Source: Vectrevirus DIJ06P1. From it: a DNA stretch of 44,766 nucleotides. The DNA lies in sequence record OZ035817.1. The stretch is one strand, 5' to 3'. The notes under the pieces were generated by a model. It worked only from the letters and a program-made list of their open reading frames with translations, did no database searches and had not been told where the DNA came from. The translations under genes were made by a program, and so were the position numbers. Shown piece by piece: positions 1-40,273 of the stretch. The first letter of the stretch is position 1. Each line of letters begins with the position of its first letter.

Positions 1-29
1 TAATAAGTTCAAGATTTGGAGGGAGAAGC

Positions 30-329
30 GTGAGCGTACACAATAAACATGCAGCTACAGAGGATGAGGTTGGCATTCTGCATGGTGCTATTACCAAAAT
101 CTTCAATAAGAAAGCACAGGCAATACTGGACACTATAGAAGAAGACCCTGATGCAGCATTACATTTAGTGTCTGGTAAGGATATTGGTGCGATGTGTAAG
201 TGGGTTCTTGATAACGGCATTACCGCCACACCTGCTGCACAGCAGGAAGAGTCCAAGTTATCTAAGCGCCTCAAGGCTATCCGAGAGGCATCCAGTGGCA
301 AGATTATTCAGTTTACAAAAGAGGAGTGA
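30..329 (+). CDS. putative terminase small subunit (DNA maturase A)
   Basis: 99-aa ORF with GTG start just downstream of GGAGGGAG; lies immediately upstream of the large terminase as T7 gene 18 does. Positional call only, no motif recognised. Confidence 0.4.
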   Translation: MSVHNKHAATEDEVGILHGAITKIFNKKAQAILDTIEEDPDAALHLVSGKDIGAMCKWVLDNGITATPAAQQEESKLSKRLKAIREASSGKIIQFTKEE

Positions 330-330
330 T

Positions 331-774
331 ATGCATAGATGGTGTGAATCTCAAGGTTATACCATCTTACCTTCTGGTGTCATCCTTTCAAAGGGTGGCA
401 CCCCTCTCAAACCATTCAAGGCGGGTAGGGGTTATTTAGCAGTTAAAATTAAAAATAAAGAAGGTAAATGGCGTAATGTCTATGTTCATCAATTAGTGGC
501 TTATAAGTATTTACCTAAAACTAATAATGAAGTAAACCACAAAGACGGCGATAAGCACAACAATGATGTTAGCAACTTGGAGTGGGTAACAAGAAGCGAG
601 AATAACTATTTAAAATGCAATGGAAATGATAGGAGTGCCTTAAATAGCTATTTAGCAAGATTAAAAGATTGCTTCTTGCAAGGTAAGGGTGTAGCAGAAA
701 CCGCTAGACTTACTGGTAAAAGTGAACCAAGAGTTTCTTCTCTCTTTAAGGAGTGGCGAAATGGCAAAGGCTAG
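331..774 (+). CDS. free-standing HNH homing endonuclease
   Basis: ATG at 331 preceded by GAGGAG; HNH core VNHKDGDKHNNDVSNLEWVTRSEN; AT-rich relative to flanks; 3' end overlaps the terminase start by 14 nt. The six-frame ORF 184..774 is an upstream extension of this frame. Confidence 0.7.
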   Translation: MHRWCESQGYTILPSGVILSKGGTPLKPFKAGRGYLAVKIKNKEGKWRNVYVHQLVAYKYLPKTNNEVNHKDGDKHNNDVSNLEWVTRSENNYLKCNGNDRSALNSYLARLKDCFLQGKGVAETARLTGKSEPRVSSLFKEWRNGKG

Positions 775-2659
775 AGAATCACAGGCAGAGGCATTAAAGC
801 GGTGGGAAAACCTTAAAGAACTACAAGACACTTTTAAATATACAGCGGAAGGTTTGCTTCTCTTTGCAGATACAGTTATTCATAACTTAATTGCAGGCAA
901 CCCTCATCTGATTCGTATGCAGGCTGATATCTTGAAGTTCCTATTTTACGGACACAAGTACCGCCTCATCGAAGCGCCTCGTGGTATCGCTAAGACAACA
1001 CTATCAGCAATCTATACGGTATTCCGTATTATTCATGAACCGCATAAGCGTATCATGGTTGTGTCCCAAAACGCCAAGCGAGCAGAGGAAATCGCAGGTT
1101 GGGTAGTTAAAATCTTCCGTGGCTTAGACTTTCTTGAGTTTATGCTGCCGGATATCTACGCTGGGGACCGTGCATCCGTTAAGGCGTTTGAGATTCATTA
1201 CACCCTACGTGGTAGTGATAAGTCTCCTTCTGTATCCTGTTACTCAATCGAAGCAGGTATGCAGGGTGCTCGTGCTGATATTATTCTAGCGGATGACGTA
1301 GAGTCGATGCAGAATGCTCGTACGGCAGCGGGCCGTGCCTTGCTTGAGGAACTGACTAAGGAGTTTGAATCTATCAACCAGTTTGGGGATATCATTTACC
1401 TTGGTACACCTCAGAACGTAAACTCTATCTACAACAACCTACCTGCTCGTGGTTACTCTGTTCGTATCTGGACTGCGCGTTACCCTTCAGTAGAGCAAGA
1501 GCAATGTTATGGCGACTTCCTTGCACCTATGATTGTTCAAGATATGAAGGACAACCCAGCACTTCGCTCAGGGTACGGGTTGGATGGTAATAGTGGTGCA
1601 CCTTGTGCCCCTGAAATGTATGATGATGAAGTCCTAATTGAGAAGGAAATCTCTCAGGGTGCTGCTAAGTTCCAGCTTCAGTTCATGCTTAACACTCGCA
1701 TGATGGATGCTGACAGATACCCATTACGCCTGAACAATCTAATCTTCACCTCGTTTGGTACAGAGGAAGTCCCTGTGATGCCTACGTGGAGTAATGATTC
1801 CATAAACATCATTGGTGATGCACCTAAGTATGGTAACAAGCCTACGGATTTCATGTACAGACCTGTAGCTCGCCCATACGAATGGGGTGCTGTCTCCCGC
1901 AAGATTATGTATATTGACCCTGCGGGTGGTGGTAAGAACGGAGATGAGACGGGTGTAGCCATCGTATTCCTGCACGGCACATTCATTTATGTGTATCAGT
2001 GCTTTGGTGTACCTGGCGGATACCGAGAGTCGTCCCTGAATCGCATTGTGCAGGCCGCACAGCAGGCGGGTGTTAAAGAGGTATTCATTGAGAAGAACTT
2101 TGGTCATGGCGCGTTTGAGGCGGTAATTAAGCCGTACTTTGAACGAGAGTGGCCTGTAACTCTGGAAGAAGATTACGCCACCGGACAGAAAGAATTGCGT
2201 ATCATTGAGACGCTGGAGCCGCTCATGGCAGCCCATAGGCTTATCTTCAATGCAGAGATGGTGAAGTCAGACTTTGAGTCGGTACAGCACTATCCGCTTG
2301 AACTACGCATGTCCTACAGTCTTTTCAATCAAATGTCGAACATAACGATTGAGAAGAACAGCCTCCGGCACGATGACCGCCTAGACGCCCTGTATGGCGC
2401 TATACGGCAATTAACTTCTCAGATAGACTATGACGAGGTTACACGGATTAATCGCCTCAGAGCGCAGGAGATGCGAGATTACATCCATGCTATGAACACA
2501 CCTCATCTACGCAGGGCAATGCTATATGGGGATTACGGTACTGAGCGAAGAGTGACCAACACTTCCGTAGCGATGCAGCAGCGAGTTTACGGGCAGAACT
2601 ACCGAAATAAATCGGCAAGCAGAAATACACTTTCTGCAAGGATTTCAAGGACTTATTAA
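761..2659 (+). CDS. terminase large subunit (T7 gp19-like)
   Basis: ATG at 761 after AAGGAG; segments such as ADIILADDVE, IYLGTPQN, KFQLQFMLN and DRYPLRLNNL match my recollection of T7 gp19. A GTG at 722 is an alternative start. Confidence 0.9.
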   Translation: MAKARESQAEALKRWENLKELQDTFKYTAEGLLLFADTVIHNLIAGNPHLIRMQADILKFLFYGHKYRLIEAPRGIAKTTLSAIYTVFRIIHEPHKRIMVVSQNAKRAEEIAGWVVKIFRGLDFLEFMLPDIYAGDRASVKAFEIHYTLRGSDKSPSVSCYSIEAGMQGARADIILADDVESMQNARTAAGRALLEELTKEFESINQFGDIIYLGTPQNVNSIYNNLPARGYSVRIWTARYPSVEQEQCYGDFLAPMIVQDMKDNPALRSGYGLDGNSGAPCAPEMYDDEVLIEKEISQGAAKFQLQFMLNTRMMDADRYPLRLNNLIFTSFGTEEVPVMPTWSNDSINIIGDAPKYGNKPTDFMYRPVARPYEWGAVSRKIMYIDPAGGGKNGDETGVAIVFLHGTFIYVYQCFGVPGGYRESSLNRIVQAAQQAGVKEVFIEKNFGHGAFEAVIKPYFEREWPVTLEEDYATGQKELRIIETLEPLMAAHRLIFNAEMVKSDFESVQHYPLELRMSYSLFNQMSNITIEKNSLRHDDRLDALYGAIRQLTSQIDYDEVTRINRLRAQEMRDYIHAMNTPHLRRAMLYGDYGTERRVTNTSVAMQQRVYGQNYRNKSASRNTLSARISRTY

Positions 2660-2680
2660 TTACTGGACACTATAGAAGGA
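2656..2680 (+). promoter_or_regulatory. SP6-type phage RNAP promoter
   Basis: ATTACTGGACACTATAGAAGGA just after the terminase stop; matches the consensus repeated across the window. Confidence 0.7.
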
Positions 2681-2824
2681 AGGCCCAGATAATAAGAGAA
2701 AATAATAGGTAATATATAGGTTAACCTAGGTTATATAGGTATGCCTTAGTATGGGTGTACTCCTGTACACCCTATTCATTACTACCTTACTACCTTACTA
2801 TATTTACATAATAGGAGAGATACA

Positions 2825-3103
2825 ATGGCTAATGATTATAGTAGTCAACCATTAACAGGTAAGTCTAAGAGAAAGCAGGTACAACCTGTAAGTGAAGAAC
2901 TAATGCTTCCGGTAATCAAAAAAGAGGAAGCTAGTAAGAAAAGCAATGCTATTAATGATGCCACCAAATCAGGTAAACAGAAAGGGGCCATGGTGTGCCT
3001 TGAAGTGGAAGGTGGTGTATTGAAGATTGCTATCGCGGTTGATGGCAAAGAAGATTCAGAGTGGAAGTTAGTAACAGCGAAACCAACTGTTATCCCAGTT
3101 TAA
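2825..3103 (+). CDS. hypothetical protein (paralog A of tandem pair)
   Basis: 92-aa ORF; shares SGKQKGAMV...IA(I/V)A block with the next ORF. Confidence 0.5.
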   Translation: MANDYSSQPLTGKSKRKQVQPVSEELMLPVIKKEEASKKSNAINDATKSGKQKGAMVCLEVEGGVLKIAIAVDGKEDSEWKLVTAKPTVIPV

Positions 3104-3121
3104 GAGAAGGAGGAAGATTAC

Positions 3122-3415
3122 ATGGCTAAATATGGTACTACAGGTTCTGTTACTGGTCAGGCTTTTCGAGTAAAAGCAGTACAAACTATTGCAACGGCAA
3201 TCCCTATGCCTGTTGTTGCTGAAGCAGACCTTAAGAAGAAAGATCACCCTATCAACATCAAACACCTGTCAGGTAAGCAGAAAGGCGCAATGGTTGCTGT
3301 TGAGAGAGATGACACAACCATGCATATTGCTGTTGCACGTGGTAGTGAACCAACAGACTCTTGGGATGTAACTGGTATGGAAGAGGACGCTGTCACTCCA
3401 GCAGGTGGAGAATAA
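3122..3415 (+). CDS. hypothetical protein (paralog B of tandem pair)
   Basis: 97-aa ORF after GAAGGAGGAAG RBS; same SGKQKGAMV motif as 2825..3103. Confidence 0.5.
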   Translation: MAKYGTTGSVTGQAFRVKAVQTIATAIPMPVVAEADLKKKDHPINIKHLSGKQKGAMVAVERDDTTMHIAVARGSEPTDSWDVTGMEEDAVTPAGGE

Positions 3416-3867: not shown

Positions 3868-4017
3868 ATGAAAAAGCTGTTCAAATCTAAGAAGGTTGTA
3901 GGTGCACTAGTTGCATTGGCAATTGCTCTTGTTTCTGTAGGTCTTGGTGTAGACCTTGGCTCTGGCACGGAATCCTCTGTGACAGACGTGGTCTGCCAAG
4001 TGATCACCTGTGAATAA
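3868..4017 (+). CDS. small membrane protein, 49 aa
   Basis: ATG at 3868; hydrophobic core VVGALVALAIALVSVGLGV; below the ORF-track size cutoff. Confidence 0.3.
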   Translation: MKKLFKSKKVVGALVALAIALVSVGLGVDLGSGTESSVTDVVCQVITCE

Positions 4018-4231
4018 GTTTCTAGAAGTGCTGGCAGGTCTTATTGGCCTGCTTGTCTCTGCTAAGAAGAAACAAGAAGAGAAGGAGGCACAAAGTGAAG
4101 CGAATCATGTTAGTGACAATCCTGCTGATTGGTTCGCTGACCACTTCCGGGTGTCAGCAGGCGTTACCAGAGAAAGCAATGGTGAAACCTCTGAGGCCGA
4201 CGCTGACGGAAGTTTACGAGGTAGACGATAA
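4010..4231 (+). CDS. putative i-spanin (Rz-like), unusually short
   Basis: N-terminal hydrophobic segment FLEVLAGLIGLLVSA then charged region; overlaps a lipoprotein ORF in another frame. Confidence 0.35.
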   Translation: MNKFLEVLAGLIGLLVSAKKKQEEKEAQSEANHVSDNPADWFADHFRVSAGVTRESNGETSEADADGSLRGRR

Positions 4232-4304
4232 GGTCTGCTTTAGTAAGCCTGACGCTACAAAATTAGGTTTGTATATTCTTTCGCTGGAACGCGGATATAA
4301 TTAA
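4095..4304 (+). CDS. putative o-spanin (Rz1-like lipoprotein)
   Basis: GTG at 4095 (or ATG at 4107) after GAAGGAGG; signal peptide plus lipobox LTTSGC; starts inside the 4010..4231 ORF in a different frame. Confidence 0.5.
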   Translation: MKRIMLVTILLIGSLTTSGCQQALPEKAMVKPLRPTLTEVYEVDDKVCFSKPDATKLGLYILSLERGYN

Positions 4305-4333
4305 TACATAGCTTTATGTATCAGTGTCTTACG

Positions 4334-4356
4334 ATTTACTGGACACTATAGAAGAG
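4334..4356 (+). promoter_or_regulatory. SP6-type phage RNAP promoter
   Basis: ATTTACTGGACACTATAGAAGAGG about 80 nt upstream of tailspike 1. Confidence 0.75.
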
Positions 4357-4435
4357 GTAAGATAGCGCCGTTCTTTTGAGCGGCCTATTACTAGCCAATC
4401 TTCATAGGGAGGGTTGGAAAGTAATAGGAGATAGC

Positions 4436-9633: not shown

Positions 9634-9813
9634 ATGACATTAAACAACCGTGAATTATCCGTTCTCTTCACTCTGTTGTGCTACATGATTCGTAACAACG
9701 AATTGCTTACAGATGACGAGTTGGCACTGTATCACCGCTTTCTTAACGAAGGTTGGACCGATACAGTTAATCAATACCGTAACATGATAGATGAGTTGAG
9801 GGAGGGTAAATAA
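9634..9813 (+). CDS. hypothetical early protein
   Basis: ATG at 9634 after GAGGG; the ORF-track start at 9592 has no RBS. Confidence 0.4.
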   Translation: MTLNNRELSVLFTLLCYMIRNNELLTDDELALYHRFLNEGWTDTVNQYRNMIDELREGK

Positions 9814-10037
9814 TGTATCAACATGAGGTATTCTTTGAATCAGCTAGCGAAGCTATTCGCTTCCGTGATGATATGATGCAAGCTGGTGTAGGCGTTGATG
9901 TGTATCACTATTTGATAGATTACGACACTGAATATCACCGAGTTACCTTAGTATCTGAGTATGACAACCAAGTCATTACTGAGTATCTAGGCAGTGAAGA
10001 TTACGATTACGATGAAGTAATCACGACAAATCTCTAA
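9813..10037 (+). CDS. hypothetical acidic early protein
   Basis: ATG after GGAGGG, overlapping the upstream stop; acidic, Tyr-rich. Confidence 0.5.
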   Translation: MYQHEVFFESASEAIRFRDDMMQAGVGVDVYHYLIDYDTEYHRVTLVSEYDNQVITEYLGSEDYDYDEVITTNL

Positions 10038-10045
10038 ATTAACTG

Positions 10046-10074
10046 TTGACAGCCACGGCATACAAGGTTACATT
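10046..10074 (+). promoter_or_regulatory. candidate host sigma70 early promoter
   Basis: TTGACA, 17-nt spacer, TACATT; same architecture as T7 A-type early promoters. Confidence 0.45.
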
Positions 10075-10107
10075 AAGCATCAAGACGGCGACGTCTTTAA
10101 ACATCCC

Positions 10108-10120
10108 GCTCTTTAACAAT
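10108..10120 (+). repeat. GCTCTTTAACAAT 13-mer, copy 2 of 3
   Basis: Exact repeat, about 60 nt downstream of the 10046 promoter. Confidence 0.6.
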
Positions 10121-10319
10121 ACGGTTTGTGTCTTGATAGGCTAACTAACTAACTAAGGTAATTATCATGAAAGGTTTAATTTGTGTAGAACGTATGGTCA
10201 ATGGTAAACTTGAAATATTACCACTGGAAAACCAATCTAGCTTCAAAGAGTGGTATGGCTGTTTCTCACTGATTTAAGGTAAAGGCTGGCACTAGTCAGC
10301 CTATCAAGGCGCAAACCAA

Positions 10320-10332
10320 GCTCTTTAACAAT
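10320..10332 (+). repeat. GCTCTTTAACAAT 13-mer, copy 3 of 3
   Basis: Exact repeat, about 100 nt upstream of ocr. Confidence 0.6.
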
Positions 10333-10428
10333 TTGGATGGTAGCTTCTTAGTCTGGATAGGTTAAACCTAGGAGATTCTCTTGAGTCTCCTATAATGTAA
10401 CCTAACTAACTAAATGAGGATTAATAAC

Positions 10429-10788
10429 ATGGCTATGTCTAATATGACTTACTCTCAGGTTTACAACAACGCTCATGCTGCATTAGTTGAACGTATCTGG
10501 AATGATGCTATTGATTGTATTGATAACGCGCATGATGCAATCCATGATGTGGCGGATAGTGCTGTACCAATCTATTATGCTGACATCTTCTCCGTGATGG
10601 CGAGTGAAGGAATTGATCATTTCTTCGAAGACTCCGGCCTGATGCCAGACACTAAGGATGTAACGGTAGTATTGCAAGCCCGTATCTATGAGCAACTCAC
10701 AATTGATCTATGGGAACGTGTTCAGTATATGATTGTTGAATACATCAACTCCGCCGAATATTTAGAAGAAGAAGAAGAGGAAGAATAA
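10429..10788 (+). CDS. ocr: Ocr-like DNA mimic (anti-restriction, T7 gp0.3 homolog)
   Basis: ATG at 10429 after GAGGA; [42 protein letters not shown] and [15 protein letters not shown] match T7 Ocr as I recall it; poly-Glu C-terminus. Confidence 0.85.
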
Positions 10789-15302: not shown

Positions 15303-15521
15303 ATGGCTAAATACAGAATCAAGACCTGTTTAAATAGTCACGGGCAAGAGTTCTACGTAGTGCAACGTAAAGTATTAGGCTTAATATGGGTCACTTGTAT
15401 GATGCCTATTGGCTATACTGATACAGAGGCTATCTTCTGCACCGAAAGGGATGCAAAGAAGTTTATCTCTAAGCGTAGAAAAGCTGACTCTTACCAACCT
15501 AGAATTATTAAGGTGAACTAA
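15303..15521 (+). CDS. hypothetical protein
   Basis: 72-aa ORF; stop overlaps the primase-helicase start. Confidence 0.45.
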   Translation: MAKYRIKTCLNSHGQEFYVVQRKVLGLIWVTCMMPIGYTDTEAIFCTERDAKKFISKRRKADSYQPRIIKVN

Positions 15522-17509
15522 TGGCTATTATTAATAACATCCCGTGCCCTGCCTGCCAGAAGAATGGGCACGATAAATCCGGCAATCATCTCATGATATT
15601 TGATGATGGTGCTGGCTATTGTAACCGTGGTCACTTCCATGATAATGGGAAGCCCTATTACCATAAGCCAGAGGGTGGTATCGAGATAACCGAATTGCCT
15701 ATTACTGGCAATATCAAATATACACCTTCTCAATTCAAAGAAATGGAGAAGGAAGGGAAGATAAGCGACCCTAAGCTACGCGCCATCGCTCTTGGTGGTA
15801 TGCGTATGAAAGACCGTTGGGAGGTCATGAATGAGCAAGAAAGGGCAGAGCAAGAAGCAGAGTGGAAACTTGATGTTGAATGGTTCCTCACGCTTAAGCG
15901 TAAGAACCTTGTTTCCAGACACATTCGCGGCGACATTTGCGCATTGTATGATGTACGTGTTGGGCACGATGAAGAGGGTAGAGTCTCACGGCATTACTAT
16001 CCACGCTTCGAAAAAGGTGAGCTAGTAGGCGCTAAGTGTCGTACCTTACCTAAAGATTTCAAGTTTGGACACTTAGGTAAACTCTTTGGTATGCAAGATC
16101 TTTTCGGTATGAATATTTTGTCTCACGTGTTAGACAAGGGAAGACGAAAGGATTGCTTGCTTATTGTGGGTGGGGAACTGGATGCACTAGCAGCGCAGCA
16201 GATGCTCCTTGATTCTGCCAAGGGTACTAAGTGGGAAGGTCAACCTTACCATGTATGGTCTGTTAACAAAGGGGAGTCTTGCCTTGAAGAGATTGTGCAG
16301 AACCGTGAACACATCGCCCAATTCAAGAAGATTATTTGGGGCTTCGATGGGGATGAGGTAGGGCAGAAGCAGAACCAGCAAGCGGCTCGCCTGTTCCCTG
16401 GCAAATCCTATATCCTTGAATATCCCTCTGGTTGCAAAGATGCTAACAAGGCATTGATGGCTGGCAAGGCTAAAGAATTTGTAGATGCATGGTTTAATGC
16501 CAAGTCATCTGATGAAGTCTTTGGTAGCCAGATTAAATCTATCGCATCTCAAAGGGATAAGCTCAAGGCTGCACGTCCAGAGCAAGGACTATCATGGCCT
16601 TGGCCTAAGCTGAACAAGGTAACGCTAGGTATTCGTAAGAACCAGCTTATCATTGTAGGTGCAGGGTCTGGTGTAGGTAAGACTGAGTTCCTTCGTGAAG
16701 TAGTTAAGCACCTCATTGAAGAACACGGTGAATCTGTAGGCATCATTTCTACAGAAGACCCGATGGTCAAGGTGTCCCGTGCTTTTATCGGCAAGTGGAT
16801 TGATAAGCGTATTGAGTTACCGCCAACCAACGACCCGAAAGAAGACGGATACCGTGAGGTGTTCGACTACACCGAGGAAGAAGCTAACGCCGCCATTGAT
16901 TATGTAGCTGATACAGGTAAGCTGTTTGTAGCTGACCTAGAGGGTGACTATTCGATGGAAAAGGTAGAGCAAACTTGCCTAGAGTTTGAGGCTATGGGCA
17001 TTTCTAATATCATCATTGATAACTTAACGGGGATTAAATTAGATGAGCGTGCTTTTGGTGGGAAGGTTGGTGCACTTGATGAATGCGTCAAGCGGATTGG
17101 TACTATCAAAGACCGACACCCGGTTACTATATTCCTTGTATCACACCTTACACGTCCTCCGGCAAACCGTACCCAACACGAAGAAGGTGGCGAAGTTATC
17201 CTTTCTGACTTCCGAGGCTCAGGAGCTATCGGATTCTGGGCATCTTACGCCTTGGGGATTGAGCGTAATACAAGAGCTGAAACGCTTGACGAAAGGACTA
17301 CCACGTACATCTCATGTGTCAAAGACCGCGACCAAGGTATCTACACTGGAACCAAGGTCATGCTTAAGGGTGACATTCAAACCGGACGTTTAATGGAACC
17401 ACAAGCCCGTACTAAGTCATTTGATACAGGTGAAGCAAGGCAACAAGAAGTACCAGATTTACCGGACACTATAGAAGAGACTAACTTCGATGAAGAAAGT
17501 GAGTTCTGA
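15521..17509 (+). CDS. DNA primase/helicase (T7 gp4-like)
   Basis: N-terminal Zn finger CPACQ...CNRGH; Walker A GAGSGVGKTEF; acidic C-terminal tail ending DEESEF. Confidence 0.9.
   Translation: MAIINNIPCPACQKNGHDKSGNHLMIFDDGAGYCNRGHFHDNGKPYYHKPEGGIEITELPITGNIKYTPSQFKEMEKEGKISDPKLRAIALGGMRMKDRWEVMNEQERAEQEAEWKLDVEWFLTLKRKNLVSRHIRGDICALYDVRVGHDEEGRVSRHYYPRFEKGELVGAKCRTLPKDFKFGHLGKLFGMQDLFGMNILSHVLDKGRRKDCLLIVGGELDALAAQQMLLDSAKGTKWEGQPYHVWSVNKGESCLEEIVQNREHIAQFKKIIWGFDGDEVGQKQNQQAARLFPGKSYILEYPSGCKDANKALMAGKAKEFVDAWFNAKSSDEVFGSQIKSIASQRDKLKAARPEQGLSWPWPKLNKVTLGIRKNQLIIVGAGSGVGKTEFLREVVKHLIEEHGESVGIISTEDPMVKVSRAFIGKWIDKRIELPPTNDPKEDGYREVFDYTEEEANAAIDYVADTGKLFVADLEGDYSMEKVEQTCLEFEAMGISNIIIDNLTGIKLDERAFGGKVGALDECVKRIGTIKDRHPVTIFLVSHLTRPPANRTQHEEGGEVILSDFRGSGAIGFWASYALGIERNTRAETLDERTTTYISCVKDRDQGIYTGTKVMLKGDIQTGRLMEPQARTKSFDTGEARQQEVPDLPDTIEETNFDEESEF
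17457..17480 (+). promoter_or_regulatory. SP6-type phage RNAP promoter inside the 3' end of the primase-helicase gene
   Basis: ATTTACCGGACACTATAGAAGAGA, full consensus match. Confidence 0.6.
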
Positions 17510-17530
17510 TTAGTGTATTTATCAGGGCTT

Positions 17531-17546
17531 GTCTCACATGTGAGAC
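17531..17546. repeat. palindrome GTCTCA-CATG-TGAGAC, copy c
   Basis: Flanks extend the stem (CTTGTCTCACATGTGAGACAGG); same extended sequence as copy f. Confidence 0.7.
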
Positions 17547-17585
17547 AGGCTCTTATTAAGTACATTAAATAACTGGAGATTGATT

Positions 17586-18269
17586 ATGTATAACTTAGTG
17601 TTGAATGTAGGTGACTTTGTACGCAACATCAAGAAAGATTCAAGTCGCTATCTTTGCCGTGGTGTTGTAACCTTTGTAGGTGAGAACCTGTATTATGTAG
17701 AATATCGCAGTGGTGTTAAGCAATATTACCACAAGAAGACAGCACATAAATATCTTGAAAAGATTGTAGAGATAAACAATCAATGTAAGTGCATACATGA
17801 TGAGGTTTGCGATAAATGTGCTCGCCAGATGCTTAAGAATTTCCTAGCTCCTCTTTATTATGGTGCTGGTCCTCAAACACTAGCAGAGTACATGGCAGAA
17901 AAGAAAACCACACTCAAGAAAGAGCGTCGCAATGTAATCACTGGTAAGACTCAAAGTGAGATGATTAAGCAATGTGGCACTGCATTAGGTGTTACACAGT
18001 TTAATACTCGTGCATTGGGTAAATCCACAGGACAAGCTATGGTAAAGATTGGAGAAGCCATGATGCATCCAAATGTACCTGTGCGAATCATGGATGTTGA
18101 CCATGCAATCACAGAACAAGGTACGCAACGACGTGTAATTAATAAGCATTTTGCCGACACTATAGAAGGTATTATTCGTAAGCAAGGGTTGAAAGGTCTT
18201 CACATCTTGAATGATGAAGAGTTACTGTACCTCCCTATTGTTACTGAAGAAACCTACGTGAATATCTAA
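17586..18269 (+). CDS. hypothetical protein
   Basis: ATG at 17586 after GGAGAT; 227 aa; AT-rich. Confidence 0.5.
   Translation: MYNLVLNVGDFVRNIKKDSSRYLCRGVVTFVGENLYYVEYRSGVKQYYHKKTAHKYLEKIVEINNQCKCIHDEVCDKCARQMLKNFLAPLYYGAGPQTLAEYMAEKKTTLKKERRNVITGKTQSEMIKQCGTALGVTQFNTRALGKSTGQAMVKIGEAMMHPNVPVRIMDVDHAITEQGTQRRVINKHFADTIEGIIRKQGLKGLHILNDEELLYLPIVTEETYVNI
18148..18170 (+). promoter_or_regulatory. weak phage-promoter-like sequence (intragenic)
   Basis: ATTTTGCCGACACTATAGAAGGT, 14 of 17 upstream positions match consensus. Confidence 0.3.
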
Positions 18270-18279
18270 GGAGTTAATC

Positions 18280-18498
18280 ATGACTAAAGTATTAATTTAT
18301 ATGCGTGGACCTCATAAATGCTATGCAGTTGTAGCACCAAATGGTGTTAAGCCTTATAGTACTTCAAAAGGATTGGCATTAATAGGTGCTAGTAGTAGTG
18401 CAAGTTTCCAAATGGAACTTTTTGGTCATTGGAATGAAAGGCAATTCCGTGAGGATTTTAAAGTCATTGGCAGCTTCATGGTGAAACATGCAGAATAA
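18280..18498 (+). CDS. hypothetical protein
   Basis: 72-aa ORF. Confidence 0.45.
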   Translation: MTKVLIYMRGPHKCYAVVAPNGVKPYSTSKGLALIGASSSASFQMELFGHWNERQFREDFKVIGSFMVKHAE

Positions 18499-18674
18499 AC
18501 ATAGTCTTAAAATGTTCGATGGTCATGAAGACCTGCAAGCCAAGATTACTAACCAAGCCTTCATGTTTGCACAGTTAACTATGGCTGAAGCAAAGAAGAA
18601 TAGCCTGACGCGTGAACAGGTTATCAAGGAAAGTGAAGTGAAACGTAAGATTCGCAGTCGATAAGTCAAGGGTT

Positions 18675-18815: not shown

Positions 18816-21362
18816 ATGAAGACTATTGATTGGAAGAAGGAGGCAGAAGGTCGTATCCTCGTGATGGATGCGGAAGCTAAAGGACTCCTTGACGCTATCC
18901 GATATAGACACCGTGAAGATGTGCATATCATTTGCTGCATGGATTTGCTTACTACCGAGGAGTTTCTCTTCTTTGACCCGTATGAGATGCGTGACCCTGA
19001 AGCAAGAGAACGCCTGAAGGAATGGGAAGGTCATCAAGATGGAACCTTGGTTGACGGTGTTAACTTCCTGAAGCACTGTGAGGCTATTGTGTCGCAGAAC
19101 TTCCTAGGGTATGACGGTCTTCTCTTTGAGAAAGCATTCCCTGATATTTGGAAAGGCTTTAACTATACCGAGAAGCGCGGTAAGGGCAGACTCCGTGCTG
19201 ACCTGTGTCCTATCCGTGTTGTAGATACGCTGGTGATGAGTCGTCTGCTAAACCCAGATAGACGCCTTCCTCCGCAAGCATATGCCAAAGGCATGGGTAA
19301 CGTCGCCCCTCACTCAATTGAGGCGCACGGCATCCGTATAGGCCGCTATAAACCAGAGAACGAGGACTGGTCTAAACTAACTGACCACATGGTTCACCGT
19401 GTACGTGAAGACGTGGCAATTGGTCGTGACCTTTTCCTATGGCTTTACAACGGAGAGTGGACGGAGCACAAACGCCGTGGCGTGAATAAACGTACTGGCC
19501 TAGGTATTGAGACAGCCTTCCACATGGAGTCCATTGTGGCGCTGGAGATGAGCCGTCAGGCCGAGCGCGGGTTCCGTCTGGACATCGACAAGGCTTTGGC
19601 CCGATGCGAAGAATTGGACGCTAAAATTGACGAGACAGTCGCAGCGTTCCGCCCTCACATGCCTATGCGTATCAAGTCTAAACCTTTTAAACCGGAAGAA
19701 AAGAATGAAGTATGCCAACGCGCAAATGAGTATGGAGTTAGCAACAATATACCTACTGTCCTTGACCCCTCACACTTTCTTCATGCCGAGAGACGAGGAG
19801 ATCGCAAGACAGTATGGAGTGTCACTACTAAGTCTGGTGATTGGTCGGCTAGTGTCAAGAAAGACTTCCCTCACCTTAGAGGAAACCGTAATGACACGCC
19901 AAGCATCAAGTGGATTGGCGCTTACTCGCCTGTTACTTTCGAAGAGATTCCCTTGGGTAACAGGGATACAGTTAAGCAAGTGCTCTATGATTATGGATGG
20001 AAAGGTGTTGAATTTAACGATACCGAGCAAGCTCATCTCGATGAACACGGAGTGTTACCCAAACCTTGGAGTGGTAAGATAAATGAAAAGTCCCTTACTT
20101 TATGGCAAGAAAGAGCCGCACGTGAAGGTAAAACAGTCCCTGATTGGTGCTTGGGTATCGCTGCATGGTACATACTCGTATCCCGTCGTGGTCAGATACT
20201 CAACCGTGGTGACGTTGAAGCCTTCAACGAGAAGGGAACGTGGCCCTCGCAGGCTGGTGTACGAAAGTGTCGCGGCCTTGTACCTGTAGCATTCAACAAG
20301 GAGCTAGGAATCAATGCGCAGCAATACTACGAGAGGTATGGATATTGGCCTACGTCTGACAAAGATGACGGGGAGTGGCGTGTTCCAGCTGTTGCTATTA
20401 GTATTGGCACTTCTACGTTCCGTATGCGTCATCGTAACGTGGTTAATATTCCTGCCCGTGGCTTGTATCCTTTACGTGATTTATTCATAGCAGGGAAAGG
20501 CAAGCTAATCCTTGGTTGTGACGGTGCAGGTCTTGAACTGCGTGTCCTGTCTCACTTCATGAATGACCCTGAGTACCAAGAGATTGTACTGCACGGTGAT
20601 ATTCATACGCATAACCAGATGAAGGCTGGTCTTCCTAAGCGTGATATGGCGAAGACGTTTATATACGCCTTCCTCTATGGCTCTGGTATAGCCAACCTTG
20701 CAGCAGTATGTGGTGTTACTGAGGCGGAAATGAAGGAAGTTGTGGCAAGATTCGAGATTGAACTGCCGTCTCTTGCACGTCTTCGTGAGAATGTTATCGC
20801 ACAAGGTAACAAGTTTGGCTACCTGCAAGCACCTGATGGGCATTGGGGTCGCATCCGCATGTCTGGTGGTGAACTTAAAGAGCACACGATGCTTAACGTA
20901 TTACTCCAGATGACTGGCTCTTTGTGTATGAAATATGCATTAGTAAAGGCATTTGCAGTAATGCGCAAGGAAGGTGTAGCCTTGGATGCTATGGGAAATC
21001 CTTGTGGTGTGGCTAACGTGCATGATGAAATCCAGATGGAAGTTCCTGAAGAGGAGGTCTTGTATCTTAACTACGACCTACCTTTCACCTTAGATGGGTT
21101 CGAAACAGAGAAGGCTGCCGTGAAAGCAGTGTTCGATGCAGAGGAGAAACGTGTTCATGTGGATTCTGAAGGACGTATGTGGTCTGCTGCAAACCTCGTC
21201 AGTGTTGATGCTGATGCTGGTGTATTGCATTGCCAGCGCCGTTATCACCGTGCAGGGCATATCATTGCCGACGCCATGATTTGGGCTGGTCAGTATCTGA
21301 AGATGCGTTGCCCGATGGCAGGAGAATATAAGATTGGCACAAGTTGGAAGGAAACACACTGA
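18816..21362 (+). CDS. DNA polymerase (T7 gp5-like, family A)
   Basis: ATG at 18816 after AGAGG (ORF-track start 18789 also possible); blocks GLELRVLSHF and KTFIYAFLYGSG match family A motifs A and B. Confidence 0.9.
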   Translation: MKTIDWKKEAEGRILVMDAEAKGLLDAIRYRHREDVHIICCMDLLTTEEFLFFDPYEMRDPEARERLKEWEGHQDGTLVDGVNFLKHCEAIVSQNFLGYDGLLFEKAFPDIWKGFNYTEKRGKGRLRADLCPIRVVDTLVMSRLLNPDRRLPPQAYAKGMGNVAPHSIEAHGIRIGRYKPENEDWSKLTDHMVHRVREDVAIGRDLFLWLYNGEWTEHKRRGVNKRTGLGIETAFHMESIVALEMSRQAERGFRLDIDKALARCEELDAKIDETVAAFRPHMPMRIKSKPFKPEEKNEVCQRANEYGVSNNIPTVLDPSHFLHAERRGDRKTVWSVTTKSGDWSASVKKDFPHLRGNRNDTPSIKWIGAYSPVTFEEIPLGNRDTVKQVLYDYGWKGVEFNDTEQAHLDEHGVLPKPWSGKINEKSLTLWQERAAREGKTVPDWCLGIAAWYILVSRRGQILNRGDVEAFNEKGTWPSQAGVRKCRGLVPVAFNKELGINAQQYYERYGYWPTSDKDDGEWRVPAVAISIGTSTFRMRHRNVVNIPARGLYPLRDLFIAGKGKLILGCDGAGLELRVLSHFMNDPEYQEIVLHGDIHTHNQMKAGLPKRDMAKTFIYAFLYGSGIANLAAVCGVTEAEMKEVVARFEIELPSLARLRENVIAQGNKFGYLQAPDGHWGRIRMSGGELKEHTMLNVLLQMTGSLCMKYALVKAFAVMRKEGVALDAMGNPCGVANVHDEIQMEVPEEEVLYLNYDLPFTLDGFETEKAAVKAVFDAEEKRVHVDSEGRMWSAANLVSVDADAGVLHCQRRYHRAGHIIADAMIWAGQYLKMRCPMAGEYKIGTSWKETH

Positions 21363-21478
21363 TGGATAGGCTTGACATTGTTTGCCTGTTCTTCACTTTC
21401 TTTCTTACACTCCTTATGCTTGCTTGTTATGGGAGTGTGAGACTAGATGTACCTGATGAAGAAGAGGGTTACGACTAA
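21362..21478 (+). CDS. tiny membrane peptide, 38 aa
   Basis: ATG overlaps the polymerase stop (TGATG); hydrophobic core; below the ORF-track cutoff. Confidence 0.25.
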   Translation: MDRLDIVCLFFTFFLTLLMLACYGSVRLDVPDEEEGYD

Positions 21479-21576
21479 TGCAAACTGCTTTTATTATTCT
21501 TGGTATCGTATTATTTATGGTAGTACTCTGGGCCTTCTCTGGCATTGACCCGGATTGTGATGGTAACTACGACTGA
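21478..21576 (+). CDS. tiny membrane peptide, 32 aa
   Basis: ATG overlaps the preceding stop (TAATG); hydrophobic core IILGIVLFMVVLWAF. Confidence 0.25.
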   Translation: MQTAFIILGIVLFMVVLWAFSGIDPDCDGNYD

Positions 21577-21633
21577 GTTATACTCAAGGTCACTTACGAG
21601 TGGCCTTTATGAATAACTTAACTGGAGAGTATT

Positions 21634-21894
21634 ATGATTAAATCACAGAAGTATTTCTCAACTAAAGATCGTAAGGTAGGTTTTGAAATCAAAGTTTGGG
21701 AAGACGGACACATTACTATTATTTACGAAGGTAAAGGTTCTAATGGTATGATGCTACGTAGATGCCGTACATTCACAAAGAAAGAATGTATGCATATGTC
21801 TGAATGCATGTTTCTTTACATCATTGCTGATGATATTAAAGGTATGAAGCTAATTGTATCTCTACCTTTAATACCTAAATCTTTGTTAGGTTGA
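21634..21894 (+). CDS. hypothetical protein
   Basis: 86-aa ORF, AT-rich. Confidence 0.45.
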   Translation: MIKSQKYFSTKDRKVGFEIKVWEDGHITIIYEGKGSNGMMLRRCRTFTKKECMHMSECMFLYIIADDIKGMKLIVSLPLIPKSLLG

Positions 21895-21918
21895 TTTACT
21901 GGACACTATAGAAGGAAA
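21894..21918 (+). promoter_or_regulatory. SP6-type phage RNAP promoter
   Basis: ATTTACTGGACACTATAGAAGGAAAG; followed by a TAGGT-repeat leader. Confidence 0.75.
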
Positions 21919-21980
21919 GCCTAGGTAATCTAGGTTTATAAGGTAGTATGGGTAATTAAGTAAATATAGGAGATATAAAT

Positions 21981-22358
21981 ATGTCAATGGTAACTACTCT
22001 GGTATTTGTAGCTCAATACTTTCGTGGTCTGGCTAATAAGTTCAAATCCAAGGCTATCAAAGCTATTGAGTCTCGCATCGAGGCAGTACAGGCAGAGCAA
22101 GTTAAAGTTGAAGAACATCGTAGTTCTCAAATGATTGACTGTCATAACCGCTACTATGCATCTCGTGATGAACTAAATGCACGTCAAGTCAAAGAGGTAG
22201 AAGATATGCTGGCACGTCACCAGCAAGAGCGTGACAGCCTGAAAGCTGAATTTGAAGAGAACAAGGCATCAATTGCTCTTGTAAATCAAGCTGCATCTGA
22301 CAGCCTGAAGAAAGAGATTGTTATGCTGGAAATAGAACTGGACAACTTGTCTAAATAA
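21981..22358 (+). CDS. hypothetical coiled-coil protein
   Basis: ATG after AGGAG; hydrophobic N-terminus then heptad-like charged region. Confidence 0.5.
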   Translation: MSMVTTLVFVAQYFRGLANKFKSKAIKAIESRIEAVQAEQVKVEEHRSSQMIDCHNRYYASRDELNARQVKEVEDMLARHQQERDSLKAEFEENKASIALVNQAASDSLKKEIVMLEIELDNLSK

Positions 22359-37325: not shown

Positions 37326-40273
37326 TGGCAATTGAGCGACAAGCAGTACAAGGTCTGCCACAAGTGCAGGCCACTTCTCCTAATGTCATGACCTTTGCAC
37401 CTCAGCGAGTTGGAGGTGTGGAGGCTGGCGTAGCTTCTACCTCCGGTAGTCGATTTATCGAAGACCTTATTCGAGCAGCCAGTAGTGTAGCTGATGTAAC
37501 CACTGGTATCCTTAATCAAAAGATTGAGGAAGATAAGGTTGTTCAAATGGAACGGGCATATAACGGATTAATGCCTTCTGAGGATGCAACTCGTGGTGGC
37601 GCTCGTGCTAACATGCTTGTCAAAGCTCAACTGCTAGCTAATGATGAAGCAGCACGAATGAAAGACATGGCTACTCGTTTCCAAGGGACGGATGACGAGT
37701 GGACACAACTTATGGTTGACTCTCGTAATGAGATGCAGAATAAGCTGTTCCAGCAATACCCTGAGTTGCAAGGTGACAAAGATACTATGCGTATGGTCAC
37801 TAATGTCTTCCAAGAACAGCAGCCTCAGATTTGGGCGACACGAACCCAGCATAAACTTGACCGTGAACAAGCAGACCGTGAGGATATCTTTGACGGGCGA
37901 GTGGCTTCTACTTGGGATTCTAATATTGACCCTGAAGCATCTGGCTATGCTTTACAGGAACGAATCCGCGAAGGTCTTACTCAAGGATTACTACCTGAAC
38001 AGATGCACAAGAAGTTAGTCCAGCGAGCAATTTCACTTGCACAAGGCGGTGATGTTAGCATGGCTGAAGCCCTGAAGTATGTGAAGGACGATAAGGGTGT
38101 TTCTGTTTATGCTAAGAATCCACAGCTTATCACAGCCATCACTAGTGGTAATGCAGTTTGGGCTAGGAATAATGTAGCTGATGTAACTCGTATGTCTTTC
38201 GAAGTTAAAGAATCCTACCTTGCAGGTGATTTAACTGATGAAGAATTGTTGGAACGAGCACAGCACATTAATAATCTGACAGGTAACTCTGTCTTCTCTA
38301 ATCCAGAGCTAGAGGCACTGATGCGCCAACGGGCTAAGCAGAATGCAGAGCTAGGTGCAATGCAGGATATGCGACGTGAGCTTTACTCCGACCGCCTGAC
38401 TGGCTTCCAAGGTAAGACTGATAAAGAGAAGAAGGCTTACATTGATGTTATCAAACAGGATAGCCAACTTTATGCAGACCAGCAAATCAAACAACGTGGC
38501 TTGGACCCTTACAGTCAAGAGGCTGAAGCTATTCGTGGTGCAGTGGAAGTGCAGCGCCTGCAATTCATGAACTCCAAAGGCTTAGTGGATGATACCTTTG
38601 AGTCTCGTATCAAAGCCATGGAATCTATGCTATCGCCTGAGCACTTTGCCAAGGGCGAACCACAGGAGTTGATGACTATTCGCCAGTTGTGGGAACAGTT
38701 GCCAGAAGAGAGCCGAGGTGTCTTTGGTGACACGGTGAATGGCTACATGGATAACTACAACACTGCACTACAAATGGGAGAGACACCTTTGCAGGCTGCA
38801 AGGTTTGCGCGTGAAGCACAGCAGAAATTCTCTCGTACTGAGAAGGAAACCAAGAAGTTCAACTCAGCTATTGGAGATGCACTGGATGAGGTATCTGGTG
38901 CTGGCTGGTTTGATGGTAAAACCGAAGTGTCAGACTTAGGTAAAGCTATTGCGGAAGAAGAGTTACGAGCTAAGGCCAATATGTTGTGGTCTAGTGGTAT
39001 GCGTAACATGGATTCTATCAAGAAGGCTTTAATTACTTGGGGCAATAAACGCTACACTCAAACAGAGGATGCAAAGACTTCCGGTGGCTATTTCATTAAA
39101 GGTGATTACACTTCTGCATCTGATATGCTTATGTCAGTTGGGAAAGGCGTAAACCCTACCGATGTACCTCTGGCGCTTGGTAGGTATGTAGAAACACAGA
39201 TGCCAGAATTGAAGAAGGAGCTTCAAGAGTGGGAAACTAAAGATGATATATACATTGATTACAATGAACAGAAAGGTACTTTCGTGATTCGTGCTGGTGC
39301 AGCAGGTCGCCCTCTTTCTGGAGTAATCCCTGTAACCTCTTTAGATACCACTTCACTACTAGATTCTGCCTATCAGAAGAAAGTAGAGGAACGAGATAAA
39401 GGCGAGTATGTTCACCCTTATCGTACAGATATTGGTGCACAAGAGCCTATGCCAGCTAAACCAACTGCCAAAGATATTGGTAAATTTGGACTAGCTAACT
39501 TCCTCATGTCTTCTGCTTTTGCTTCTGGTGAGAATCTGCCTTCTAACTTCGAGATTAACTATCGAGGTAATATGCAACAATTCTATGACAAGCTAGCTAT
39601 GGATGAGAATAAAGATAAAGTTGGCTTTAATAAGGCAACTGGAACCTTTACTCCATATAAAGATGCTCACGGTGAGTCTATCGGTTACGGTCATTTCTTA
39701 ACGGAAGAAGAGAAGCGAAACGGGTATATTAAGATTGGTGATGAACTAGTTCCCTATCGAGGGTCTATGTCTCAGCTTACAGAGAGCAAGGCTCGCGCTC
39801 TTATGGAGCAAGATGCCAAGAAGCATGTGCCTTCTACTCGTGACTGGAAGATTCCGTTTGACCAGATGCATCCTGCACAGCAACGTGGCTTGATGGATTT
39901 AACCTACAATTTAGGTAAAGGTGGAATCCAGAACTCACCGCGTGCTCTTGCTGCATTCAAAGCTGGTAAGCTTACGGAAGGCTTTATCGAAATGCTGGGC
40001 ACTGCATCAAGTGAAGGTAAGCGTATCCCTGGTCTACTGAAGCGACGCGCTGAGGCATACAATATGGCATCTGCTGGTGGTGTGCCTAAGATTACCGAAG
40101 TGGAGACTCGTGAAGATGGCTCCATGTGGGTTAGGTTTGGTGGACCTATGCCAGCAGGTTCTGTCTCGGCATGGACTCATAAACGTATTGGCGCGGATGG
40201 TTGGTATCAGGTTTATGAGGCTGCACCTACCAAGTTAGCTAAAGGTTCTAAGGTAGGTAAATTTAAGTTGTAG
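37325..40273 (+). CDS. internal virion protein with C-terminal lysozyme-like domain
   Basis: 982 aa; C-terminal segment DENKDKVGFNKATGTFTPYKDAHGESIGYGHFL parallels the T4 lysozyme catalytic region. Confidence 0.8.
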   Translation: MAIERQAVQGLPQVQATSPNVMTFAPQRVGGVEAGVASTSGSRFIEDLIRAASSVADVTTGILNQKIEEDKVVQMERAYNGLMPSEDATRGGARANMLVKAQLLANDEAARMKDMATRFQGTDDEWTQLMVDSRNEMQNKLFQQYPELQGDKDTMRMVTNVFQEQQPQIWATRTQHKLDREQADREDIFDGRVASTWDSNIDPEASGYALQERIREGLTQGLLPEQMHKKLVQRAISLAQGGDVSMAEALKYVKDDKGVSVYAKNPQLITAITSGNAVWARNNVADVTRMSFEVKESYLAGDLTDEELLERAQHINNLTGNSVFSNPELEALMRQRAKQNAELGAMQDMRRELYSDRLTGFQGKTDKEKKAYIDVIKQDSQLYADQQIKQRGLDPYSQEAEAIRGAVEVQRLQFMNSKGLVDDTFESRIKAMESMLSPEHFAKGEPQELMTIRQLWEQLPEESRGVFGDTVNGYMDNYNTALQMGETPLQAARFAREAQQKFSRTEKETKKFNSAIGDALDEVSGAGWFDGKTEVSDLGKAIAEEELRAKANMLWSSGMRNMDSIKKALITWGNKRYTQTEDAKTSGGYFIKGDYTSASDMLMSVGKGVNPTDVPLALGRYVETQMPELKKELQEWETKDDIYIDYNEQKGTFVIRAGAAGRPLSGVIPVTSLDTTSLLDSAYQKKVEERDKGEYVHPYRTDIGAQEPMPAKPTAKDIGKFGLANFLMSSAFASGENLPSNFEINYRGNMQQFYDKLAMDENKDKVGFNKATGTFTPYKDAHGESIGYGHFLTEEEKRNGYIKIGDELVPYRGSMSQLTESKARALMEQDAKKHVPSTRDWKIPFDQMHPAQQRGLMDLTYNLGKGGIQNSPRALAAFKAGKLTEGFIEMLGTASSEGKRIPGLLKRRAEAYNMASAGGVPKITEVETREDGSMWVRFGGPMPAGSVSAWTHKRIGADGWYQVYEAAPTKLAKGSKVGKFKL

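Follow-up and report, generated by a model that had tools for sequence, protein, structure and literature searches.

The window analyzed here, that is, the whole 44,766-nucleotide stretch of Vectrevirus DIJ06P1 DNA (OZ035817.1), carries at positions 331 to 774 of its plus strand, between the genes for the small and large terminase subunits (terS and terL), what its sequence and predicted fold indicate is an intact I-HmuI-like HNH endonuclease gene under purifying selection. Taking the protein together with its distribution and its flanks in related phages, we consider it likely that this is a free-standing homing endonuclease gene that spreads by break repair with co-conversion of the neighboring DNA.

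Results

A predicted I-HmuI-like endonuclease encoded between the terminase genes

The window opens within the late packaging module of a podophage from the T7 supergroup. The terS gene (30 to 329, plus strand; 99 amino acids, stop codon TGA at 327 to 329) matches Pfam DNA_Packaging_2 with E=3.6e-16, and records of VEc3, K1-5, and other phages label its counterpart terminase small subunit. A single spacer base, T330, separates its stop codon from the HNH gene (ATG at 331, TAG at 772 to 774; 147 amino acids), which in turn overlaps the uninterrupted terL gene (761 to 2659, plus strand, ATG at 761; 632 amino acids; Pfam Terminase-T7_RNaseH-like, E=2.2e-35) by 14 nt at 761 to 774. The ORF coordinates agree with the first-pass annotation of this DNA, which had placed the start 1 nt past the terS stop and had noted the 14-nt overlap with terL. 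It had also called the gene low in GC relative to its flanks, and indeed its GC content is 38.1%, against 45.0% in terS, 47.1% in terL, and 44.9% in the genome. Only 3.2% of 444-nt windows are this low in GC, and the value is about 1.8 SD under the mean, so that the GC dip is real but modest. The low GC extends into the first 85 nt of terL (40.0%, compared with 51.8% in the same stretch of K1-5). The ORFs in the other low-GC stretches of the window yielded only ocr and no nuclease, and tblastn found no second HNH_3 paralogue in the window.

Several lines of evidence speak to the nature of the encoded protein. It matches the Pfam family HNH_3 (PF13392) over profile positions 1 to 45 of 46 with E=2.6e-11 and 43.4 bits, where the curated cut-off is 24.8 bits, and it matches PHROG 59 and 959 (both “HNH endonuclease”) with E=1e-29 and 3e-26. 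A phmmer comparison with I-HmuI of Bacillus phage SPO1 (1U3E) gave E=5.4e-6. The HNH (beta-beta-alpha-metal) nuclease core spans residues 50 to 92 (478 to 606, plus strand) and contains H53, N69-H70, D72, G73, N77, N78, N82, and N91. Alignments with 30 to 31 homologues, taken from a large protein collection, show 13 invariant columns, and at each of them the window protein conforms to the family (Y35, H53, N69, H70, D72, G73, N77, N78, N82, L83, E84, W85, and N91). In the alignment with I-HmuI, N69-H70 corresponds to D74-H75 and N91 to N96, where we take H75 and N96 to be the general base and a metal ligand; at the column of the I-HmuI metal ligand D74 the window protein has an Asn, which is invariant across its subfamily.

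An AF2 model built from the homologue alignment (mean pLDDT 93.6, pTM 0.78) consists of an N-terminal sheet, a beta-beta-alpha core at approximately residues 67 to 96, a long helix, and two helices at the C-terminus. When searched against the PDB with Foldseek, this model had 1U3E (1u3e_M) as its sole significant match (E=8.9e-7, probability 1.00; 29% identity over 115 columns), all other hits having E>0.2. The resemblance to I-HmuI comprises both the order of parts, from N-terminal DNA-contacting strands through the HNH core and helices to what in the window protein is a presumed C-terminal helix-turn-helix, and the motif itself, which reads VNHKDG...NN...NLEW...N in the window protein and VDHKDG...NN...NLRW...N in I-HmuI. 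The two differ in that I-HmuI has 174 amino acids instead of 147, has Asp74 in place of the Asn, and is encoded by a group I intron in a DNA polymerase gene, whereas the window gene is free-standing at a terminase junction. The presumed DNA-binding helix-turn-helix covers approximately residues 121 to 143 (691 to 759, plus strand), with modeled helices at 121 to 128 and 132 to 143. Pfam HTH_23 matches this region weakly in the window protein (E=0.045, under the cut-off) and better in a homologue described below (contig L017; E=8e-4), and in phage mutPK1A2, where the C-terminal part is a separate ORF, this ORF matches helix-turn-helix PHROGs.

Among the three alleles found in the genus (those of the window, AAPEc6, and PhiNW-E1), dS is 0.12 to 0.37 and dN/dS 0.12 to 0.16. 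Given this constraint and the confidence of the model, the HNH ORF is no chance reading frame. The profile match, the invariant residues, the structural match, and the dN/dS values together point to an intact I-HmuI-like endonuclease under purifying selection, and the first-pass designation as a gene of the HNH homing type holds, with all catalytic and family-invariant residues kept on alignment. Among enzymes of the I-HmuI family, those that have been characterized are homing enzymes that nick DNA with site and strand specificity (PMC3428280).

The HNH gene is polymorphic among close relatives

A megablast search against phage genomes placed the window in the genus Vectrevirus (K1-5/K1E group, SP6-like, Molineuxvirinae, Autographiviridae), with window positions 1 to 2700 being 99.6% identical to VEc3. 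The HNH gene is present at the terS/terL junction in 17 records, which represent 12 named phages (VEc3, LI10P3, 101101UKE1, KMB47, T145P2 [OZ035747], AAPEc6, EC120, T147P9, LI10P5, Mt1B1_P10, PDP21P6, and PhiNW-E1), and is missing from about 60 of 77 related Vectrevirus records, among them K1-5, LL11, KMB14, Sem1-4, T147P1, PDP21P3, and a second T145P2 assembly. In the records without the gene, the query matches as two pieces that span 2268 bases instead of the 2700 bases of the window, and the stop codon of terS overlaps the start codon of terL in the sequence TGATG. Alignments with K1-5, LL11, KMB14, and others define a net insertion of 432 nt at 330 to 761 (plus strand), which settles the insertion site by comparison with insert-free relatives, as the first-pass annotation had proposed. 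KMB14 is without exactly these 432 nt; its 2 kb on the left side and the remainder of its terL are both 99.8% identical to the window.

The presence of the gene does not track relatedness. Across the whole genome, identity to the window is 96.3% for KMB14 and 95.8% for K1-5, both of which lack the gene, compared with 92.3 to 93.4% for the HNH-positive phages T147P9, PDP21P6, and Mt1B1_P10, and the two T145P2 assemblies, which bear one species name, differ in whether they have the gene. Its presence in all relatives, which would have spoken against a mobile element, is thus excluded, and the proposed insertion of a mobile-type element between terS and terL is borne out by a precise presence/absence polymorphism among close relatives. 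Several GenBank records of sister phages already annotate proteins identical to the window HNH protein, by homology, as “HNH (homing) endonuclease”. We found no literature that describes or analyzes the Vectrevirus HNH gene, and the AAPEc6 genome announcement is silent on it.

The mobile unit extends into both terminase genes

Judged by these alignments, the mobile unit is larger than the HNH ORF and comprises approximately positions 299 to 845. Over this block, T147P9 and PDP21P6 are identical to the window at 547 of 547 positions and Mt1B1_P10 at 545 of 547, whereas the rest of terL is only 93.7% (T147P9) and 91.8% (PDP21P6) identical. The converse is seen in AAPEc6, whose cassette is 96.2% identical on a backbone that is 99% identical, and a further allele, 90.7% identical to the window cassette, is carried by PhiNW-E1. 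Since identical cassettes occur on diverged backbones and a diverged cassette on a near-identical one, cassette and backbone have separate histories.

Relative to HNH-less phages that are otherwise near-identical, substitutions are confined to two segments. The left one (299 to 326, plus strand), which we interpret as a co-converted flank, covers the last 10 terS codons with seven marker substitutions, six synonymous and one, at 326, causing D99E. The right one (766 to 841, plus strand) is a recoded 5' segment of terL that is always linked to the HNH gene, and we propose that it represents a cleavage-resistant (“immune”) allele and an obligatory co-conversion tract. Codons 1 to 28 of terL differ from K1-5 by 29 substitutions (18 synonymous, 11 non-synonymous), with the TerL changes A13K, M17N, Q19K, Q23D, and P26K from K1-5 to the window, as against only nine substitutions in codons 29 to 632.

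The two flanks behave differently across the genus. In an alignment of window positions 31 to 1300 from 13 HNH-positive and 10 HNH-negative phages, 22 sites have no allele shared between the two groups, namely position 326 and 21 positions within 766 to 837, and no such site occurs elsewhere. The left markers at 299 to 320 are found in graded combinations among HNH-positive phages, with only 326 being fixed: Mt1B1_P10 and VEc3 have the K1-5-type state at 299 and 305, AAPEc6 has it at 299, 305, and 311, and the left flank of PhiNW-E1 is of the K1-5 type through 320. Conversely, the HNH-less phage ULINTec4 has window-type states at 299 to 314. The complete recoded terL segment, by contrast, is present in every one of the 13 HNH-positive phages aligned; PhiNW-E1 has five differences from the window in it, all synonymous and leaving the N-terminal TerL sequence unchanged. 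The same picture emerged when residues 1 to 60 of TerL were used as a tblastn query: 17 records, each HNH-positive, reached at least 99% identity, 60 lay at 90 to 95%, and none fell between. In a search for the donor of the cassette and for HNH-less carriers of the recoded terL 5' end, distant blastn and tblastn with the TerL N-terminus returned only these 17 HNH-positive records. Exact-pattern scans for it found a single IMG/VR contig and nothing in metagenome contigs, and a search of IMG/VR for related loci added only that same contig plus three distant HNH genes.

A right-hand recombination junction zone at 842 to 889 (plus strand) is visible in T147P9, PDP21P6, and Mt1B1_P10, whose terL backbones are unlike that of the window. 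Here, identity to the window stops at the first backbone markers, 871 or 880 and then 889, and these junctions lie about 30 to 40 nt past the point where the HNH-positive and HNH-negative alleles realign.

The asymmetry between the flanks bears on the possibility that the gene is an inactive or no longer homing passenger, in other words an old insertion whose donor flanks have been shuffled by ordinary homologous recombination without involvement of its own nuclease. Vectrevirus genomes are mosaic in every region, and therefore general recombination alone could move the cassette; decayed copies exist in mutPK1A2 and contig L021 (see below), and our literature search returned no report of cleavage, nicking, or biased inheritance for this HNH protein or a close relative. 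However, neutral shuffling predicts no asymmetry, whereas the right flank was never parted from the gene in 13 phages and 17 records while the left one recombines freely. Moreover, the dN/dS values given above and the retention of all invariant residues across alleles with dS of about 0.3 are signs that the protein is under selection, and we regard an inert passenger as unlikely.

A possible role of the gene in DNA packaging

The location of the gene between terS and terL raises the question of whether the protein might instead work with the terminase as a packaging accessory of the HK97 gp74 type, to which the recoded TerL N-terminus would be co-adapted. HK97 gp74 is likewise an HNH-motif protein encoded beside terminase genes, both readings are possible for terminase-adjacent HNH genes (PMC10448857), and the TerL N-terminal variant with its five replaced residues occurs always and only together with the HNH gene. 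Against this stands the absence of the gene from about 60 of the 77 related records, including phages that are 99.8% identical in both flanks; HK97 gp74-type genes differ from the window gene in this respect, since the latter is not conserved in its relatives. TerL has a T7-type RNaseH-like nuclease domain of its own. It is established how SP6/T7-like phages package their DNA, and these genomes end in direct terminal repeats and not in cos ends, a 267-bp repeat being annotated in the HNH-positive phage Mt1B1_P10. Finally, the combination of an HNH_3/I-HmuI-like core with a presumed helix-turn-helix domain is the architecture of a site-specific homing enzyme and belongs to another HNH subfamily than the packaging HNH proteins of cos phages. 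The packaging role that the first-pass annotation had suggested for such proteins is consequently not upheld for a gene that is dispensable in near-isogenic relatives, and we consider it very unlikely, the linkage with the TerL variant leaving it a small probability.

It is tempting to speculate about a related scenario, in which the HNH protein functions as a co-adapted partner of the recoded TerL N-terminus (K13, N17, K19, D23, and K26) and the gene is a facultative packaging accessory that is not purely selfish. The nuclease would then act with or on the terminase, for instance by nicking concatemer junctions or by modulating the initiation of packaging. We judge this to be very unlikely. 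In a weaker version, a homing element may simply force five amino acid replacements in an essential motor protein for the sake of self-immunity.

Expression signals of the cassette

The consensus of a phage RNA polymerase promoter, CTGGACACTATAGAAG, is matched exactly within terS at 126 to 141 (plus strand), upstream of both the HNH gene and terL. This consensus occurs in eight copies in the window, compared with zero expected by chance, and the copy in terS probably works as a promoter from which the HNH gene is transcribed. A scan of positions 1 to 3000 for sigma-70 promoters and terminators gave nothing above shuffled sequence, and no candidate above background fell in the cassette.

For translation, a Shine-Dalgarno motif GAGGAG lies in the end of terS at 321 to 326 (plus strand), 4 nt before the HNH start codon, and it is the fixed substitution at 326 (GAT to GAG) that creates it. 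A second motif, AAGGAG, lies within the 3' coding end of the HNH gene at 748 to 753 (plus strand), 7 nt before the terL start codon, and stands in for the AAGGAGG found at the end of terS in HNH-less phages. With its own ribosome binding site at the end of terS and a new one for terL supplied by its 3' end, the insertion should leave terminase expression undisturbed. From these signals we infer that the HNH gene forms a cassette that has no promoter of its own and belongs to the late packaging operon.

The element is old in the group

Homologues at the same junction extend beyond the alleles described above, which within the genus are 96% and 91% identical to the window gene. A homologue with 59% identity sits at the terS/terL junction of a more distant SP6-like 45-kb contig (L017), from a phage whose TerL N-terminus is K1-5-like. 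In mutPK1A2, a homologue of about 41% identity at the same junction is split into a 110-amino-acid HNH ORF and a 37-amino-acid helix-turn-helix ORF, and is flanked by window-type sequence on the left and K1-5-type sequence on the right. A short metagenomic contig (L021) contains a frameshifted HNH copy fused to terS, where the frameshift could reflect decay or an assembly error.

These observations split the earlier suggestion of a recent acquisition into two parts. For individual genomes it stands, given that an identical cassette occurs on diverged backbones; for the group it does not, given the diverged alleles, the 59%-identical homologue, and the split and frameshifted copies. By this comparison, the HNH element has long been associated with the terS/terL junction and is not new to the group. 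Because the element is old in the group, its low GC is more plausibly attributed to the AT-richness common in genes of this kind, or to that of the original donor, than to its age. Invasion, spread, and decay at one site make up the usual life cycle of a homing endonuclease gene.

Discussion

How the HNH gene may spread

In the homing scenario that we favor, an HNH-positive phage co-infects a cell together with a related HNH-less Vectrevirus, and the enzyme would nick or cut the HNH-less genome in or beside the first approximately 28 codons of terL. The break would be resected and then repaired from the HNH-positive genome, so that the recipient would acquire the recoded terL 5' end (766 to 841) together with the HNH gene and a stretch of the terS 3' end that varies in length. 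The recoded terL 5' end would make carriers resistant to, or poor substrates for, their own enzyme, and individual HNH copies would decay later, as the split and frameshifted copies suggest.

This scenario offers an account of both flanks. The right junctions would lie just past approximately 845 because strand invasion can start only where homology resumes, and everything from the cut to the endonuclease gene would always be copied, while the left junctions would scatter because the alleles become homologous again within the terS 3' end, where they differ at few sites. The target is thus probably located within the first approximately 28 codons of HNH-less terL, in a segment that corresponds to window positions of approximately 784 to 841, giving a candidate target of about 60 bp. 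Among HNH-less phages, this candidate is not unusually conserved (pi 0.042, compared with 0.044 to 0.052 nearby). The 21 fixed differences in terL codons 2 to 26 suggest that carriers may be resistant. Such resistance is not guaranteed in the I-HmuI family, since I-HmuI cleaves intron-plus and intron-minus DNA alike (PMC3428280), and the recoded terL 5' end could also be a leftover of the original donor's terL and not a selected resistance allele.

Precedents for this mode of spread are found in phage T4, whose free-standing HNH and GIY-YIG genes undergo “intronless homing” with co-conversion of their flanks, often as promoterless cassettes, and for whose seg and mob genes the model includes marker exclusion and nicking by the HNH members (PMC2988022). 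As in the window, MobA, MobE, SegF, and SegG are encoded by intergenic promoterless cassettes between conserved essential genes and display presence/absence polymorphism, flank co-conversion, and exclusion of the flanking allele (PMC2988022). The window element differs from them in residing in an SP6-like member of the Autographiviridae and in a putative cleavage site located less than about 100 bp from the insertion point. Many of the free-standing T4 enzymes cut hundreds of bp away.

Marker exclusion by the T4 enzymes favors the phage markers that flank them (PMC2988022), and co-opted functions of homing endonuclease genes have been reported (PMC13096335; PMC10448857). One might hence regard the HNH protein as a weapon, or as otherwise beneficial to the phage, by cutting competitor phages or satellites or by stimulating recombination, with its spread being a side effect. 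Nothing in the sequence separates such a role from plain homing, though, most relatives lack the gene, and decayed copies occur, so that we find this reading very unlikely indeed.

Relation to other mobile endonuclease genes

Outside the genus, the best full-length phage matches are T5-like HNH_3 proteins (“DNA endonuclease I-HmuI” and “HNH endonuclease IV”), which share about 35% identity over 95% of the protein; this identity is low, and their genomic context is a different one. The T5 F-Tfl enzymes of this kind are characterized nicking homing endonucleases.

Within the genus, a second mobile endonuclease element is known from the same gene: a group I intron in terL of K1E with gp40.5. It is intron-borne, lies about 1.1 kb into terL, and has an ORF that is weakly GIY-YIG/NUMOD-like and not HNH_3, in all of which it differs from the window gene. 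An intron-encoded status of the window HNH gene was considered and rejected: the window contains no group I intron, no other RNA family (Rfam), and no tRNA, and the same search does find the terL intron in K1E, PhiNW-E1, and a contig with a homologous locus (L018). PhiNW-E1 has both the intron and the junction HNH gene, and L018 has the intron alongside a homologue 59% identical to that gene.

Implications for Vectrevirus biology

By its profile match, motif residues, and predicted fold, the protein has the properties of an HNH_3/I-HmuI-like enzyme, and on comparative grounds the locus has all those of a free-standing homing gene. Homing endonuclease genes cluster beside terminase genes in many phages (PMC10448857), and the HNH gene is an uncharacterized example of this well-known kind of mobile gene that leaves the overall picture unchanged. 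Its practical value is that near-isogenic pairs with and without the gene (such as the window phage and KMB14), three cassette alleles, a sharp co-conversion tract, and the candidate target of about 60 bp are at hand, so that homing and marker exclusion would be convenient to measure here for therapeutic coliphages of the SP6/T7-like type. It also reveals the Vectrevirus terminase region as a hotspot for mobile endonuclease genes, which matters for the use of terL and terS as phylogenetic markers and for cocktails in which related Vectrevirus phages are propagated together.

Diverged and disrupted copies at the terS-terL junction

Several relatives carry altered versions of the free-standing HNH_3 gene that lies between terS and terL in the window (331-774), or of the flanking sequence that forms a cassette with it. 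In mutPK1A2, a homologue with approximately 41% identity occupies the same junction (833-1263) and is present in two pieces, a 110-aa HNH ORF and a 37-aa HTH ORF. Its flanks are mixed, with terS 3′ markers of the window type and a terL 5′ end of the K1-5 type found in relatives that lack the HNH gene, and this homologue probably represents an allele that is decaying or has a different target. A disrupted copy of the cassette is found at 4001-4743 of contig L021 (Logan ERR4564195), where the N-terminus of the HNH protein is joined in frame to terS and a second frameshift, located within an A-rich stretch, reduces the HNH ORF to a remnant of 92 aa; the recoded TerL N-terminus is retained. The disruptions in L021 could represent either real decay or an assembly error. 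Window-type markers are also found in the HNH-less phage ULINTec4, whose terS 3′ end, aligned to window positions 299-326, carries them at 299-314 and is longer by 3 nt. This terS end could be a vestige of an earlier loss of the HNH gene or, alternatively, of recombination with an HNH-containing phage.

Other features of the window

The terS coding sequence contains an exact match to the phage RNA polymerase promoter consensus, CTGGACACTATAGAAG, at 126-141. The window contains eight of these sites in total, with the remaining seven at 2663, 4339, 17462, 21899, 22668, 23814, and 32130. Using 444-nt windows, we found further regions with a GC content of ≤38% at 2541-3135, 9781-10585, 17351-18605, and 21361-22275; the gene for the DNA mimic Ocr (10414-10788) falls in one of them, and the ORFs of the other listed regions gave no Pfam match. 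Separately, a 123-nt indel is located at 42167-42367 (approximately −2600 to −2400 from position 1 if the window is taken as circular), inside the gene for a 1102-aa internal virion protein (40338-43646). The window shares this segment with T147P9, KMB14, and AAPEc6; K1-5, LI10P3, PDP21P6, and PhiNW-E1 lack it.

Further endonuclease genes and a group I intron in relatives

In some relatives, as in Mt1B1_P10 (38540-38896) and Proteus phage PM 93 (4001-4414), a second endonuclease gene of the HNH_3 type lies between those for the RNA polymerase and the primase/helicase. No second HNH_3 gene was found in the window, whose equivalent position (15303-15521) holds just a 72-aa ORF, which does not match any Pfam family. 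In ACG-C91, another gene annotated as a “putative HNH endonuclease” (1-259) lies directly upstream of terS, in the position taken by the holin gene in other members.

Within terL itself, a group I intron (Rfam RF00028; 61 to 65 bits versus a gathering score of 50) splits the gene approximately 1.1 kb in, in K1E (1748-1955), contig L018 (2664-2873), and PhiNW-E1 (1826-2074). The intron is adjoined by a 177-aa ORF (gp40.5 of K1E), for which the GIY-YIG and I-HmuI NUMOD-like matches are weak. PhiNW-E1 harbors both the intron and the junction HNH gene, and in L018 the intron occurs alongside a homologue of that gene (59% identity); terL of the window contains no group I intron. Within the genus Vectrevirus, mobile endonuclease elements have a hotspot in terL.
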